Shown piece after piece: positions 3,747 through 48,885 of a stretch of DNA of 64,000 nt. This DNA is from Escherichia coli (lineage in GTDB: Bacteria > Pseudomonadota > Gammaproteobacteria > Enterobacterales > Enterobacteriaceae), in NCBI RefSeq assembly GCF_050320075.1, contig NZ_CP190018.1; one strand, written 5' to 3'. Numbering within the stretch: position 1 is the stretch's first letter; the number at the start of each line of letters is the position of its first letter. The translations under genes were made by a program, and so were the position numbers. The notes beneath the pieces were generated by a model. It was not told the DNA's origin. It saw only the letters and a program-made list of their open reading frames with translations, and made no database searches.

Positions 3747-3762
3747 AGCAAGGGGAGTGCCA
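3747..3762 (-). promoter_or_regulatory. sigma-54 (-24/-12) promoter of atoDAEB
   Basis: Minus strand reads CTGGCAC-tcccc-TTGCT, matching TGGCAC-N5-TTGCA; about 45 nt upstream of the atoD start. Confidence 0.7.
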
Positions 3763-3844
3763 GAATGAGATTATTGGGTTTTGTTATTTAACTAATTGAA
3801 TATGAAGGGATAAATTGGATGAGGATTTATAAGGAGAATGAGCG

Positions 3845-44250: not shown

Positions 44251-44431
44251 GCCTCACCCCCTGACGAATACGGGCAGCGAATACAGCAACACAGCCGGAC
44301 GGGCAACAGTTACGCGCTTCTCGTTCGGTTGATGCCTCGACGTGAACAATACGGGAATCAGTCGGATTAAAGATGACAAAGCGCCAGATAAATGTGTTTT
44401 GAGAATGTTCGAGGGTAGGGGTAGTAGCCAT
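44243..44431 (-). CDS. hypothetical small protein (62 aa)
   Basis: Consensus AGGAGG Shine-Dalgarno 7 nt upstream of the ATG (minus strand ...ACAGGAGGCTGCCAAATGGCT...); first ORF after a structured leader. Confidence 0.5.
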   Translation of the reverse strand: MATTPTLEHSQNTFIWRFVIFNPTDSRIVHVEASTEREARNCCPSGCVAVFAARIRQGVRHA

Positions 44432-44591
44432 TTGGCAGCCTCCTGTAACGTTGGGATATACCCACCGCCGGAGGTGGTAAGCTCGATGGCGGTGGACTGT
44501 ACAGGGTTACCACAACTGGTGTTACAGGAAACCAGCCTGACCGAAGTCAGCCCCATACAGCCCACCATTGATAAGGCGTGCGCGTGCGCCG

Positions 44592-44617
44592 ATACAAAAA
44601 AAGACGCCTGGCGCGTC
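44592..44617 (-). terminator. intrinsic terminator/attenuator inside the island leader
   Basis: Minus strand AGACGC-gccag-GCGTCT followed by TTTTTTTGT; about 160 nt upstream of the 62-aa ORF. Confidence 0.6.
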
Positions 44618-44986
44618 TGTATCGCCTGTAACTCCAGCGGGGTGGTAATCCCGACACCCGTTTTATGAGGTGCGCAGGGAGTATATCCCGTTTTCTTGCT
44701 CATGTGGTCGGATGTGTTGAAGGTGTGCCCACCACACAAATCACATTGCTCACCAGCCGGAAATATGGCATTGTTGGCGATGCATTCAAGTTTAATATAT
44801 GCCTTCTGGCGACCCTCTGCGGTCGCCTTTGTTTTATTCGTAAGCAACATATTTCTTTTGTCGTTTAAGCTATGCGATTGTACGTTTCCGTTTAAAACGG
44901 AAGTGCTATTAGTTCAATTAATTCGTTCGTACGGTTTGAACTGAATAATAACATCAGCCATAATTTTTTATGGTTGAACGAAAACC

Positions 44987-45002
44987 TGCCCCTGTTTGGG
45001 CA
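44987..45002. terminator. hairpin downstream of alpA (bidirectional terminator-like)
   Basis: TGCCC-ctgttt-GGGCA followed by TTTTTG on the plus strand and by GGTTTTCG on the minus strand; ~75 nt after the alpA stop. Confidence 0.45.
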
Positions 45003-45077
45003 TTTTTGCCAGTATTCATAATGTTCTCTCTTAATTGTTTTGTTGCTTGATAGTAATCAGGCCAGCGTTAATCACAC

Positions 45078-45269
45078 TTATGCTTCACGAGTTTCTCTCT
45101 CACGTTCTTTCAACCAGGCGAGTACCTCATCTTCATACCAGCCAATGCGACGCAGCCCGATACGGAATCCTTTGGGGAACCCGCCTTTGTTAACCATCTC
45201 CGTTAGGGTCGAATCAGATTTAATGCGTAGCAAGGCCTTTACCTCTGGTCGTAAAAGAATAGCCCTCAT
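45078..45269 (-). CDS. alpA: AlpA-family phage regulatory protein (HTH, excisionase-like)
   Basis: 63 aa; pattern ILLRPEVKALLRIKSDSTLTEMVNKGGFPKG...IGWYEDEVLAWL matches AlpA/CP4-57 regulators; sits next to the integrase. Confidence 0.75.
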   Translation of the reverse strand: MRAILLRPEVKALLRIKSDSTLTEMVNKGGFPKGFRIGLRRIGWYEDEVLAWLKERERETREA

Positions 45270-45474
45270 CCTATTTCTCCTCTGGACAGCAAAATATCGC
45301 TTTTTGAATGAAAATAACGGTAAGTAATGTAATAAGCATACAAATCTATAAAAAAGACAGTCAAGAATTATTTAATAAGAGCTATGTGATTGGTTATTTT
45401 TTAATTTTCTAACATAAAAAGAATTTAAATGTTTCTCAAAATGAGACAGTATTGAGAAAGTAATGAGACACAAA

Positions 45475-45506
45475 TTAGCTCCTAACTGATACCAATTAGG
45501 AGCTAA
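45475..45506. other. perfect hairpin immediately downstream of the integrase gene
   Basis: TTAGCTCCTAA-ctgatacca-ATTAGGAGCTAA (11-bp perfect arms) followed by a T-rich tract on the plus strand; likely terminator or binding site. Confidence 0.45.
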
Positions 45507-45522
45507 TAATTTTTTAAATATT

Positions 45523-46767
45523 TTATTTTATTCCGCGTAATCCTCTGTGCCCGCTGGCGATGGTTGTTCCGGTTGCGGCTGCTTCCACAAAATCACCCCA
45601 CCAGCACATTAACACTTTACGTTTTTCCAGGTAGTTGCTTCGGTTGTATGCCCGTCTAACTTCGTTTGTGTCCACGTGGGCTAGTGCGGCTTCGATCACG
45701 TCAGGTTCAAATCCTTCTTCATTCGCCGCCGTGCTGAATATTGCGCGTAGTCCGTGAGATACCAGCACACCAGCGTAACCCATTCGTCGTAATGCTGCGT
45801 TTGCTGTCTGGCTGCTCATTGATTGCACTGGATTTTTAAGACTTGGGAAAACATGCTCCCTTCGTGCGCTAATCGGCTTCATGGCTTCAAGCACTGCCAT
45901 CGCCTGAGCGCAAAGGGGGATCACATGATCACGGCGCATCTTCATGCGTCCGGCTGGTATCGTCCAGGTTGCCGCCTCAAGGTTGATTTCTTCCCACCGT
46001 GCGGCGGAGGCTTCGGCTGGGCGGGTTGCGGTTAACAACTGCCACTCAATCAGCAATCTGGTTTGCCGTTCTATGCTGGCGATCGATAAATCGTGCATTA
46101 GCTGCGGTAGTTGTTCCGGTCGGATGGTTGGCATGTGCTTTTTGGTGGGGGAAGGGAATGCCTTGCGAACGTTCGCGGCGGTGTTGATGTCAATCAGTCC
46201 ACTGTTGGCAGCAAAATCCATCACTTCATTGATGCGCTGTAAAACGCGTTTCAGTGTTTCCAGGTTGCCACGTGCCTTGATGGGCGTGAGTATCTCAACA
46301 AAGCGGCGAGCGGTGAGAGTATCTATCGGTGTGTTTCCGATATACGGGAATACATATTTCTCTAGCGAGCGCCAGATGTCCTTGATCGTATTGTGGGCGA
46401 GATTCTGGTTTTTTTTCATTTCGTACCACAATGCGGCCACATTTTCGAACGTGTTGCCCTGTCGTCGAGCCTCTGCTTCGAGTTTTTGCCGTTCGTATTC
46501 CTGCGGGTCGGTTCCTGCCGCAATTAACGTCCTGTACTCGCTACGGCGTTTTCTGGCATCAGCCAGGGAGACTTCATCAAGCGAGCCCAAACTAATGATT
46601 GTTCGTTTTTTGTTCGATGGTCGATAGTAGTTGAATCGCCATAGTTTCGAACCAGACGGCTTAATAACGAGAAAAAGCCCGCCGCCATCCTGTAAGGTGT
46701 ATTCTTTTTCCGCTGGTTTAGCTGCTTTGATCTGTGTGGTGGTGAGTGGGGTCGCCTTTCTTGCCAT
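45523..46767 (-). CDS. int: tyrosine recombinase / integrase, P4 family
   Basis: 414 aa; N-terminal arm-binding domain (LTTTQIKAAKPAEKEYTLQDGGGLFLVIKPSGSKLWRFNYY), catalytic region with R...HGLR...Y; adjacent to the tRNA 3' end. Confidence 0.9.
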   Translation of the reverse strand: MARKATPLTTTQIKAAKPAEKEYTLQDGGGLFLVIKPSGSKLWRFNYYRPSNKKRTIISLGSLDEVSLADARKRRSEYRTLIAAGTDPQEYERQKLEAEARRQGNTFENVAALWYEMKKNQNLAHNTIKDIWRSLEKYVFPYIGNTPIDTLTARRFVEILTPIKARGNLETLKRVLQRINEVMDFAANSGLIDINTAANVRKAFPSPTKKHMPTIRPEQLPQLMHDLSIASIERQTRLLIEWQLLTATRPAEASAARWEEINLEAATWTIPAGRMKMRRDHVIPLCAQAMAVLEAMKPISARREHVFPSLKNPVQSMSSQTANAALRRMGYAGVLVSHGLRAIFSTAANEEGFEPDVIEAALAHVDTNEVRRAYNRSNYLEKRKVLMCWWGDFVEAAATGTTIASGHRGLRGIK

Positions 46768-46799
46768 ACGTTTATGAATCCACGGGAAAAAACAGGTTC

Positions 46800-46856
46800 T
46801 AGTTATACGGATTTAGCTATGCGCCAGCCCGTATAACTAAACATATAACTAAAAAA
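46800..46856. repeat. candidate integrase arm-type sites (GTATAACTA repeats)
   Basis: TAGTTATACGG (inverted), GTATAACTAAA and ATATAACTAAAA between int and the tRNA; another copy CGTATAACTAAA at 38879-38890 near the other island end. Confidence 0.5.
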
Positions 46857-46973
46857 AACGGCTGAAAACCACTGTTACCGTCGAATAACGATGACTAAAA
46901 ACAATAAAAAAACCCGCTATTCAATGAATTAGCGGGCTTATTTCATAAAAACGATAATTAATAATGGGCGATT

Positions 46974-47050
46974 TGGTCGGCACGAGAGGATTTGAACCTC
47001 CGACCCCCGACACCCCATGACGGTGCGCTACCAGGCTGCGCTACGTGCCG
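46974..47050 (-). tRNA. proL: tRNA-Pro (anticodon GGG inferred)
   Basis: Minus strand reads CGGCACGTAGCGCAGCCTGGTAGCGCACCGTCATGGGGTGTCGGGGGTCGGAGGTTCAAATCCTCTCGTGCCGACCA: 77 nt, cloverleaf-compatible, GGTTCAAATCC T-arm, encoded CCA. Confidence 0.9.
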
Positions 47051-47124
47051 ACTCGTGGCTGTTAATACTACCGTTTTCCACACCGATTGCAAGTAAGATA
47101 TTTTGCTAACTGATTTATAATTAA

Positions 47125-48885
47125 TCAGTTAGCGATAAAACGCTTCTCGTCTGTCAGTACTTGCAATAACAAACTTAACTGTGGTTTTTCATCTTTCACT
47201 CTTTCACCACGTAAGTTGTAAGTACGGTATTTACCGTTATTGTTCAGCACCAGCGTCTTTTTCGGGGTGGTAATTGCCAGCGTATCGTTATCCGCGGCGG
47301 TAACCCAGTAATGACGGCGTTGAGAGTTGAACAAATCCTGACCTTGCGAATATTCGCTGGCAGGTGTGCTGACATGTAGCAGGCGTTGCATCAGCGTCGT
47401 CATCAGATCGGTATGATCAGTCAGAGCATTAATACGCTGCGCCGGCGTACCTGGCCAGTGAATCACTAATGGCACCTGCAGATGACCGTGGGACCAGTCA
47501 AAGGTTTCTTCCTCTTCGCTCAGCGGAATACCCCGACCGGCAGTGATAATCACCACCGTATTGTCCAGTTTGCCAGAATCACGTAGTGCATTGAGCACGC
47601 GGTTGATCTGGTCATCGACATTGCTTGCCGCCCGGCTATATTTCCGTGCAAATGCCTGCTGATTGCTGTCGTCAATGTTAGTGCCATTGAAAGAAACCCA
47701 CGAGAACCAGCGGTTATCTTCTTGTGCGTAGCGGCCCAGCCAGTTGATCCACTGCGTGGCGGTCTGCTCGTCGGATTGGGTGCGTACGCTCGGCATCGAG
47801 AAATCTGACAACAATGCCTGGCGATACAGCGGGCTGGTAAAGCCATCTGACGAGAATAACCCCAGCTGATAGCCTTGCTGATTAAGCGCAGTAATTAACG
47901 CCGCAGGCGTACGGGTCGACAGAATGCCGTCCATATAGCTCGGCGAGATGCCATAGAACAGGCCAAAGATGCCGTTGTCTGTAGTGTTGCCGGAGCTCAT
48001 ATGGCGCGTGAACGAAATATTTTGCTCAGCAAAACCTGCCAGCGCAGGCATCTGCTTCTCGAAGCGTGAGTAGTTCAGGCCATCGACAGTAATCAACAAG
48101 ACATTCTGCCCGGTGCCCATATCGCGATAGCGCAGTTCGCTTAACGGATACTGAACGGAAACGGCGTCTGGATTACCTTGCTCAATGAGACGGCGTTGAT
48201 ACTCCTGCGCATCAAGCAGACCATGCTTCTCAAGAAAACGTCGCGCCGTCATCGGGTACGAAAGCGGTAGGTTAGCGCGCTGCATGGTGATCGGGCGATA
48301 GAAGTTGGCATCGGCCCAGATATACACCACATGCGAGGCGATAAAGGCGATAAATAAGAATGCGGCCAGCGGGCGCGCGAAGCGCCGACGACGCGTCAGG
48401 CTGCGTAGCTTTTGCCAGCTCCACGTCGCAAACACCAGTTCAAGCAATAAAATAACCGGCACGCTGATGAACATCAGCTGCCAGTCGCGCGCCATCTCAT
48501 TTTCGTCTGGGTTGATAACCAGTTGCCAGACGATGGGATTAAGATGGAGATGGAAACGAGTAAAGACTTCGCTATCGATCAGTAATAGCGTCATTCCCGC
48601 CGTTGCCAGAATGACGGACAAAAACCTCATCAGCCTCTGGGAGCCGACGATAAAGGTCAGCGGGAAGAGGATCAGCAAGTAGGTGGCGAACACCAGGAAG
48701 CTGAAATGGCCGATAATGCTTACGTAGGAATAAATGCGACCAGCAAGCGTTGTCGGCCAGTCGGCGATAAACAGGTAACGGCTGCCAATGACGAGCGAAA
48801 GCAGAATATTGAACAGTGCAAACCAGTGCCCCCAACTGACCATCTGGGAGACTTTTTCACGGTAGCGCTGACGATGAGTTACCAT
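47125..48885 (-). CDS. yejM: inner-membrane protein with periplasmic sulfatase-like domain (PbgA/YejM)
   Basis: 586-aa ORF; five N-terminal TM helices plus C-terminal sulfatase-fold-like domain; synteny with proL and yejL. Confidence 0.85.
   Translation of the reverse strand: MVTHRQRYREKVSQMVSWGHWFALFNILLSLVIGSRYLFIADWPTTLAGRIYSYVSIIGHFSFLVFATYLLILFPLTFIVGSQRLMRFLSVILATAGMTLLLIDSEVFTRFHLHLNPIVWQLVINPDENEMARDWQLMFISVPVILLLELVFATWSWQKLRSLTRRRRFARPLAAFLFIAFIASHVVYIWADANFYRPITMQRANLPLSYPMTARRFLEKHGLLDAQEYQRRLIEQGNPDAVSVQYPLSELRYRDMGTGQNVLLITVDGLNYSRFEKQMPALAGFAEQNISFTRHMSSGNTTDNGIFGLFYGISPSYMDGILSTRTPAALITALNQQGYQLGLFSSDGFTSPLYRQALLSDFSMPSVRTQSDEQTATQWINWLGRYAQEDNRWFSWVSFNGTNIDDSNQQAFARKYSRAASNVDDQINRVLNALRDSGKLDNTVVIITAGRGIPLSEEEETFDWSHGHLQVPLVIHWPGTPAQRINALTDHTDLMTTLMQRLLHVSTPASEYSQGQDLFNSQRRHYWVTAADNDTLAITTPKKTLVLNNNGKYRTYNLRGERVKDEKPQLSLLLQVLTDEKRFIAN

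Follow-up and report, generated by a model that had tools for sequence, protein, structure and literature searches.

The window, by which we mean the entire 64,000-nucleotide stretch of the Escherichia coli chromosome that we analyzed, carries an island of ~8.2 kb that is inserted at tRNA-Pro(GGG) (proL), adjoins yejM, and is bounded by direct repeats CTCTCGTGCC (the att core) at 46979-46988 and 38796-38805. The locus is 100% identical over the query to that of E. coli strain YZLc1-3. All island genes lie on the minus strand, in the order int, alpA, isrK/C4, an Icd-like gene, DUF4222, a DUF927 primase, SSB, ProQ/FinO, and PerC. With a tRNA-adjacent int, co-oriented alpA and primase genes, small size, and no structural genes, the island is, as judged by gene layout, a P4-like/PICI satellite. 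It shares with Gram-negative PICIs of the EcCICFT073/EcCIMP1 type an inward-facing int next to a tRNA gene, a co-oriented alpA directly beside it, a P4-like immunity-RNA zone, a primase, and PerC (PMC6092414, PMC10111431, PMC11773190). The published layout of Gram-negative PICIs comprises an integration zone (int, alpA), an immunity-RNA zone, replication genes, and late/accessory genes (PMC10111431). In these islands, AlpA is an autoactivating, helper-induced master switch that is required for excision and transfer, and its overexpression results in uncontrolled island replication (PMC6092414, PMC11773190). We found no experimental study of the proL island family in the published literature.

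Several other elements of the island were apparent. Rfam matches on the minus strand at 44485-44572 and 44597-44673, just downstream of alpA, identified C4 antisense RNA (78.7 bits) and isrK (61.6 bits) in a region that RefSeq annotates merely as an 'ash family' pseudogene; on the basis of these matches, C4 and isrK are a P4-type immunity RNA module within the PICI-like island. Between alpA and these RNAs, a short G+C-rich hairpin (TGCCCCTGTTTGGGCA, 44987-45002) has U-rich sequence on both strands and is terminator-like in both directions. Probable integrase arm-type sites are the TTAGTTATA(C/T)G repeats, found as a tandem close to the int promoter (46830-46852), once in inverted orientation (46800-46809), and again as a tandem at the other end of the island (38867-38890). 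What looks like a replication origin with iterons lies near the far island end (39160-39292, minus strand), where an AT-rich stretch is flanked by three ACTTGTCCC repeats and by three inverted repeats of the GGGACAGG type.

The int stop codon (45523-45525) and the alpA start (45269) enclose a spacer of 253 bp (45270-45522) with a G+C content of 26%, in agreement with the AT-rich spacer of ~250 bp that a first-pass annotation of this DNA had placed after the int stop. Pfam confirmed int and then alpA, both on the minus strand, as the flanking genes named in that annotation, with AlpA scoring 26.8 bits against PF05930 (cut-off 21). Published accounts of PICIs (PMC6092414, PMC11773190, PMC10111431) describe no element between int and alpA, and we found no earlier description in the published literature of the spacer hairpin in the proL island family. 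Listed in the direction of int transcription, the features of the region are as follows.

45523..46767, minus strand: int, a P4-type tyrosine integrase of 414 aa (open-reading-frame list; Pfam Phage_integrase, Phage_int_M, and Arm-DNA-bind_3; identical RefSeq locus)
45508..45522, minus strand: A-rich 15-nt stretch from the int stop to the stem, sense AAUAUUUAAAAAAUU, nearly invariant in all variants and a U-rich tail when read on the plus strand
45474..45507, minus strand: hairpin with 5' arm 45507-45493, GUAU loop 45492-45489, and 3' arm 45488-45474; 15 pairs (5 G-C, 1 U.G)
45459..45473, minus strand: post-stem tail, sense UUGUGUCUCAUUACU, a weak U-tract with 5 U in the first 8 nt
45443..45475, minus strand: three tandem 11-nt units, ATTTGTGTCTC, ATTACTTTCTC, and AATACTGTCTC, in phase with the hairpin units (TRF, motif enrichment, alignments)
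45432..45459, minus strand: second inverted repeat, TTTCTCAA/TTGAGAAA, with 8-bp arms and a 12-nt loop
45405..45419, minus strand: box TTTTATGTTAGAAAA, kept in both cassette types (alignments)
45335..45364, minus strand: candidate alpA promoter TTGACT-18-TATGCT, conserved in all variants (consensus match and conservation only)
45078..45269, minus strand: alpA, 63 aa, Phage_AlpA family (open-reading-frame list, RefSeq annotation, Pfam)

For the hairpin, the first-pass annotation gave perfect 11-bp arms at 45475-45506. The sequence is as quoted there, and the arms are actually 12 bp long, consisting of ATTAGCTCCTAA (45474-45485) and TTAGGAGCTAAT (45496-45507) with 10 nt between them. In int-sense (minus-strand) RNA, the arms are extended by U.G, U-A, and G-C pairs to give 15 pairs and a 4-nt loop, and the stem begins 15 nt 3' of the int stop codon. 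This RNA folded with an energy of -20.9 kcal/mol in a 76-nt context (z = -5.23; 0/200 shuffles equal), and the plus-strand RNA folded with -18.8 kcal/mol (z = -5.06 in the shuffle test). For the stem-loop alone, the values were -20.4 kcal/mol in the int sense versus -16.5 kcal/mol on the plus strand, where the fold is weaker because a C.A mismatch replaces the int-sense U.G pair. By chance, the whole window should contain 0.18 perfect inverted repeats of at least 11 bp with a 3-12-nt loop, and when the local AT-rich spacer was simulated with a Markov model, 0.44% of the runs produced one (P about 0.004). A motif search of the whole window found the arm motif in no second place.

Some identities for this element could be set aside. 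An Rfam search of 44000-47200 at E <= 1 returned C4, isrK, and tRNA but no family at the hairpin, which rules out a known RNA family at that threshold. A mobile repeat or REP-like sequence was rejected on account of the uniqueness of the arm motif in the window, the presence of the spacer at a single place per genome, and the lack of matches in phage and plasmid collections. A small open reading frame using the AGGAG of the 3' arm was rejected on the reasoning that gain or loss of 11-nt units shifts the frame between variants, and an integrase arm-type site was rejected because the repeat in the att flanks is another one and the core is ~1.5 kb from the hairpin.

The spacer occurs in 67 of 5426 complete E. 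coli genomes, once per genome and with 73-100% identity, and also in E. albertii and 3 metagenome contigs; no related sequence was found in phage or plasmid collections. Versions of the sequence from the int stop to the -35 hexamer were taken from 19 E. coli and E. albertii loci, of which 16 were distinct. The first-pass annotation had named conservation in related islands as a check on the hairpin, and in these versions it was indeed kept at the same position in 16/16; the 3 metagenome contigs also kept it at the same place and added no new hairpin variant. Its distance from the int stop was constant, although bases change and 11-nt units come or go: the arm sequence was ATTAGCTCC or ATTGGTTCC, and the gap between the arms was 10, 14, or 21 nt. 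Conserved elements of the spacer family were the 15 nt after the stop, the 5' arm, the TTTTATGTTAGAAAA box, and the promoter TTGACT-18-TATGCT, with a replaceable cassette between them. The E. albertii island is homologous across int and the hairpin, and the match ends at 45471, immediately beyond the 3' arm (gap from 45471 to 45385); thus, the hairpin moves together with int.

In an alignment of 11 distinct versions, with the structure taken from one aligned sequence, standard pairs occupied 91.5% of cells as against 15-55% when the partners were slid. Three pairs changed type yet stayed paired (A-U/G.U/G-C, C-G/U.G/U-A, and U-A/U.G), and their wobble intermediates are valid only in int-sense RNA. 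A column-shuffle control gave 91.2% paired versus the observed 91.5%, with the observed values reached in 184-322 of 500 trials, a single pair counted as changed on both sides, and formal covariation statistics for these 11 versions of an Escherichia-confined family were not significant. Int-sense RNA folded better in 8 of the 12 variants folded, and the antisense strand was as good or better in four group-B variants. Int relatives in other genera (52 loci) had downstream modules unrelated to this spacer, and AlpA relatives in viral contigs (6 loci) had a different gene between int and alpA; as neither these loci nor the metagenomes supplied usable further relatives, covariation power was not raised. 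The family is confined to Escherichia and has had little divergence time. On these alignments, the comparative signal favors a selected hairpin and is not statistically decisive.

The suggestion that the hairpin may terminate int transcription survived in part. Its strand, its position, its stable and conserved stem, and a consensus scan that flagged it as terminator-like on the int strand agree with this proposal; its poor U-tract and negative score do not. It resembles Rho-independent terminators of E. coli in that a stable stem-loop, formed by the transcribed strand, follows a stop codon by a few nucleotides, with a preceding A-rich tract and a U-containing tail. It differs from them in its A-U-rich stem base (AUUA/UAAU), where a G+C-rich base followed by a run of U is typical, in the interrupted U-tract of its tail (UUGUGUCU), and in its negative discriminant. 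The T-score of the tail was 2.6, versus 5.2-5.6 for the proL and attR-side terminators, and the U-tracts of the group-B tails (UUAAACCG, CUAUUUGG) are weaker still than that of the window. A d'Aubenton-Carafa-type discriminant, which was computed with modern energies and is a relative measure only, was -12 for the window hairpin in the int sense, -17 to -40 for sister variants, and -41 for the window hairpin on the plus strand; the corresponding scores were +27 for the proL terminator and +20 for the attR-side terminator, both genuine terminators of the window, and +1 for the terminator that precedes alpA in a more distantly related family. Because its U-tract is weak, the hairpin is at best a leaky or non-canonical terminator. 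In four E. coli islands whose int is ~80% identical (L014-L017), a small open reading frame lies between int and alpA, and a canonical terminator (AATAGCGGCCCCTTGCGGTCGCTATTTTTTT) is found directly upstream of the alpA promoter region and thus in a position equivalent to that of the window hairpin.

The first-pass annotation had also offered the hairpin as a binding site for AlpA, on the analogy of CP4-57, in which AlpA controls integrase expression. This proposal fared poorly, as arm sequences and spacings differ among islands whose AlpA and Int proteins are identical: the same AlpA (WP_001201666.1) occurs with both cassette types and both arm sequences, and the same Int (WP_000101294.1) occurs with both arm sequences. 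A palindromic operator for a dimeric HTH protein would have a fixed half-site and spacing that track the protein, and the hairpin has neither. An excisionase-type protein should bind at the att flanks as well, and these do not contain the arm motif. The CP4-57 analogy does not transfer to this position, since the hairpin is located downstream of int, not at the int promoter, and any rise in int expression through AlpA would therefore have to take another route; in EcCICFT073, AlpA switches on the promoter of its own gene and not Pint (PMC6092414). An AlpA operator at the hairpin is thus not supported by the comparison of these islands.

As a feature, the hairpin is ordinary: a stem-loop at the end of a gene, in a satellite island of a known type. 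Its location and stability and its retention through changes of sequence lead us to infer, with a confidence that falls a little short of even, that it is a leaky or non-canonical terminator, a 3'-end stem-loop of int, or both, and that it insulates the autoactivating alpA promoter. RNA polymerase that initiates at the int promoter, which adjoins the tRNA-Pro attachment site, would transcribe int, then the 15-nt A-rich spacer, and then the 15-pair hairpin. The hairpin and the short, imperfect U-stretch that follows it would stop part of this transcription and/or protect the 3' end of int mRNA, read-through into the alpA promoter region 110-180 nt downstream would thereby be limited, and such an insulator would keep low constitutive transcription of int from tripping the alpA switch. 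Leaky expression of AlpA leads to excision and runaway replication, and a block to read-through upstream of alpA would help to keep the island silent, a useful but unsurprising piece of wiring. The arm spacings of 10, 14, and 21 nt could be tolerated by an RNA loop but not by a fixed dimeric operator, and this difference favors an RNA stem-loop. Counting against an RNA role, the arms also belong, as units, to a phased array of 11-bp repeats, and this points to a role at the level of DNA.

From the hairpin to the alpA promoter (45386-45470 in the window, and the same interval in loci L002-L013, L018, and L071-L075) runs a hypervariable cassette that can be replaced and is made of tandem repeats of 11 or 22 bp; both the type of repeat and its copy number vary among islands with identical Int and AlpA. 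TGTCTC-type 11-mers are present in three copies in the window, in 2-6 copies in relatives, and not at all in group B; sister cassettes contain 2-4 copies of GGAGCCAATTT repeats and 1-3 copies of the 22-mer CCCATTATTTAAAGTCAGAAGA. TRF detected arrays of period 11 or 22 in every spacer variant tested, with period 11 at 45440-45468 in the window. The 11-nt unit motif was observed 8 times versus 3.0 expected, three of the copies being adjacent (45443..45475), and the ATT of each 11-nt unit remains in phase through the hairpin and the TGTCTC units. The second inverted repeat (45432-45459), 15 nt downstream of the hairpin, is confined to group-A cassettes and overlaps a weak promoter-like match, TTGAGA-17-TATGTT. 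A consensus scan found no extended -10 element at the candidate alpA promoter.

With at least three adjacent units spaced 10-11 bp apart in AT-rich, bendable DNA, the cassette resembles the operator arrays of recombination directionality factors (RDF proteins) such as lambda Xis, 186 Apl, and P2 Cox. Those arrays, however, consist mainly of direct repeats and are also found at att, whereas here an inverted pair is conserved and the arm motif is missing from the att flanks, which carry TTAGTTATA(C/T)G instead. A second likeness is to P4 PLL, where P2 Cox has its cox-boxes upstream of vis, an alpA homologue: both regions have short tandem repeats at helical-turn spacing and in mixed orientation upstream of the promoter of an AlpA-family gene. 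The upstream neighbor is Psid/ori1 in P4 but int here, and the P2 cox-box consensus TTAAA(G/C)NC(A/C), with two matches in the P4 control, had none in the window or the group-A variants, so that P2 cox-boxes were rejected for the window. One or two matches were found in some group-B relatives only (L011, L012, L018, and L075); the group-B 22-bp repeats hold the exact matches TTAAACTCA and TTAAAGTCA, and two hits have a probability of about 0.004-0.006 (L011, L018). A likeness of the TGTCTC units to lambda Xis sites was rejected as well, with a best match of 11/15 that was no better than in shuffles.

These repeats allow other accounts of the hairpin. Its arms might be inverted members of an 11-bp helix-phased array that is bound cooperatively by a small winged-helix protein of the RDF type, which would bend the DNA and switch PalpA on. 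The candidate binders would be AlpA itself or a Cox/Xis/Apl-like protein of a helper phage, after the model of P2 Cox at P4 PLL upstream of vis, and 186 Apl is a precedent for cooperative binding to an array (PMC7498355). We regard this account as doubtful. It fits the period-11/22 arrays in every variant examined and the phasing of units through the hairpin, the direct repeats one helical turn apart and loose specificity that characterize RDF-protein sites (PMC7498355), the cox-boxes upstream of P4 PLL, which vary in orientation and follow one another at 10-11 bp (PMC3936717), and the tandem 10-bp repeats seen at PLL in the P4 sequence. AlpA autoactivates PalpA, no helper-encoded inducer is named in PMC6092414 or PMC11773190, and variation of the cassette between islands with identical Int and AlpA would be expected of a helper-specific sensor. 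That same AlpA protein occurring beside quite different arrays, however, makes AlpA-specific recognition of the arms unlikely, and the arm motif is found nowhere else in the window, the att-flanking repeats included. The lack of cox-box consensus in the window, a likeness to lambda Xis sites at the level of chance, and the lack of related sequence in phage or plasmid collections also weigh against it, as does a location ~95-180 bp upstream of the predicted alpA transcription start site. Moreover, an array of direct repeats has no need of inverted units, yet inverted symmetry and hairpin potential are the conserved property. It is more improbable still, in our judgment, that the cassette (~45386-45507), with the hairpin arms as its first inverted units, is a helper-phage sensor on which a DNA-bending protein of the helper would polymerize and fire the alpA promoter. 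If this were true, the choice of helper phage that induces an island would shift as cassettes were exchanged among islands whose Int and AlpA are identical, and the cox-box motifs of some sister cassettes would be one such tuning. As a candidate helper-sensing region, which is speculative, the cassette does not depend on the hairpin itself. The phased, swappable cassette is of more interest than the hairpin, as it offers a concrete place to seek the helper-phage signal that induces alpA.

An unlikely account, to which we give slightly less weight than to the bound array, is that the hairpin is a neutral by-product of an unstable 11-nt array that expands, contracts, and inverts by slippage or recombination, in which any inverted pair of units would automatically form a hairpin. 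Copy number does vary between near-identical islands (L002 versus L003), GGAGCCAATTT is present in 2, 3, and 4 copies in L012, L011, and L018, respectively, and the non-significant covariation statistics, the poor terminator score, and the restriction of the family to Escherichia, with its short divergence time, are all in keeping with neutrality. Random shuffling of units would often break the inverted arrangement, however, and a stable hairpin is found at the same distance from the int stop in 16/16 variants despite many rearrangements, with altered pairs that remain standard via G.U intermediates. Alternatively, the hairpin followed by AAUAAUUUUUUAAAUAUUUU on the plus strand could terminate antisense RNA that would otherwise pass from the alpA promoter region into int. 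The nearly invariant 15-nt A-rich stretch provides a U6 run 2 nt past the stem on that strand, and the antisense fold is equal or better in group B. This alternative is very improbable, given that we found no upstream promoter-like site or gene on the plus strand and that the plus-strand fold in the window is the weaker one, with C.A in place of U.G and the score of -41 noted above.

Minor observations concern more distant or altered relatives. In L014-L017, 10-nt ACCAnnnnAA repeats run into TATAAT right after the int stop, and GTGGGTAC repeats surround a ACCGTTTTAAAACGGT palindrome at the alpA promoter. Two E. coli strains (L073 and L074) have IS1 in or next to the int/alpA region and an int pseudogene, and by these signs their island copies are decaying. 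In the Int relatives from Enterobacteriaceae LSJC7 and Brenneria salicis (L020, ~3755-3775; L021, ~3752-3772), a LexA-box-like palindrome, TACTGTATATTCATACAGT / TACTGTATTTATATACAGT, lies right after the int stop and suggests SOS control of the next gene. Finally, in AlpA relatives of 65-67% identity from viral contigs (L077-L081, ~1850-2000), int and alpA are separated by a gene of ~250 aa, after which comes an inverted repeat lacking a U-tract, and a conserved ACCGGAATCCNCCGGT palindrome is present just upstream of the alpA start.
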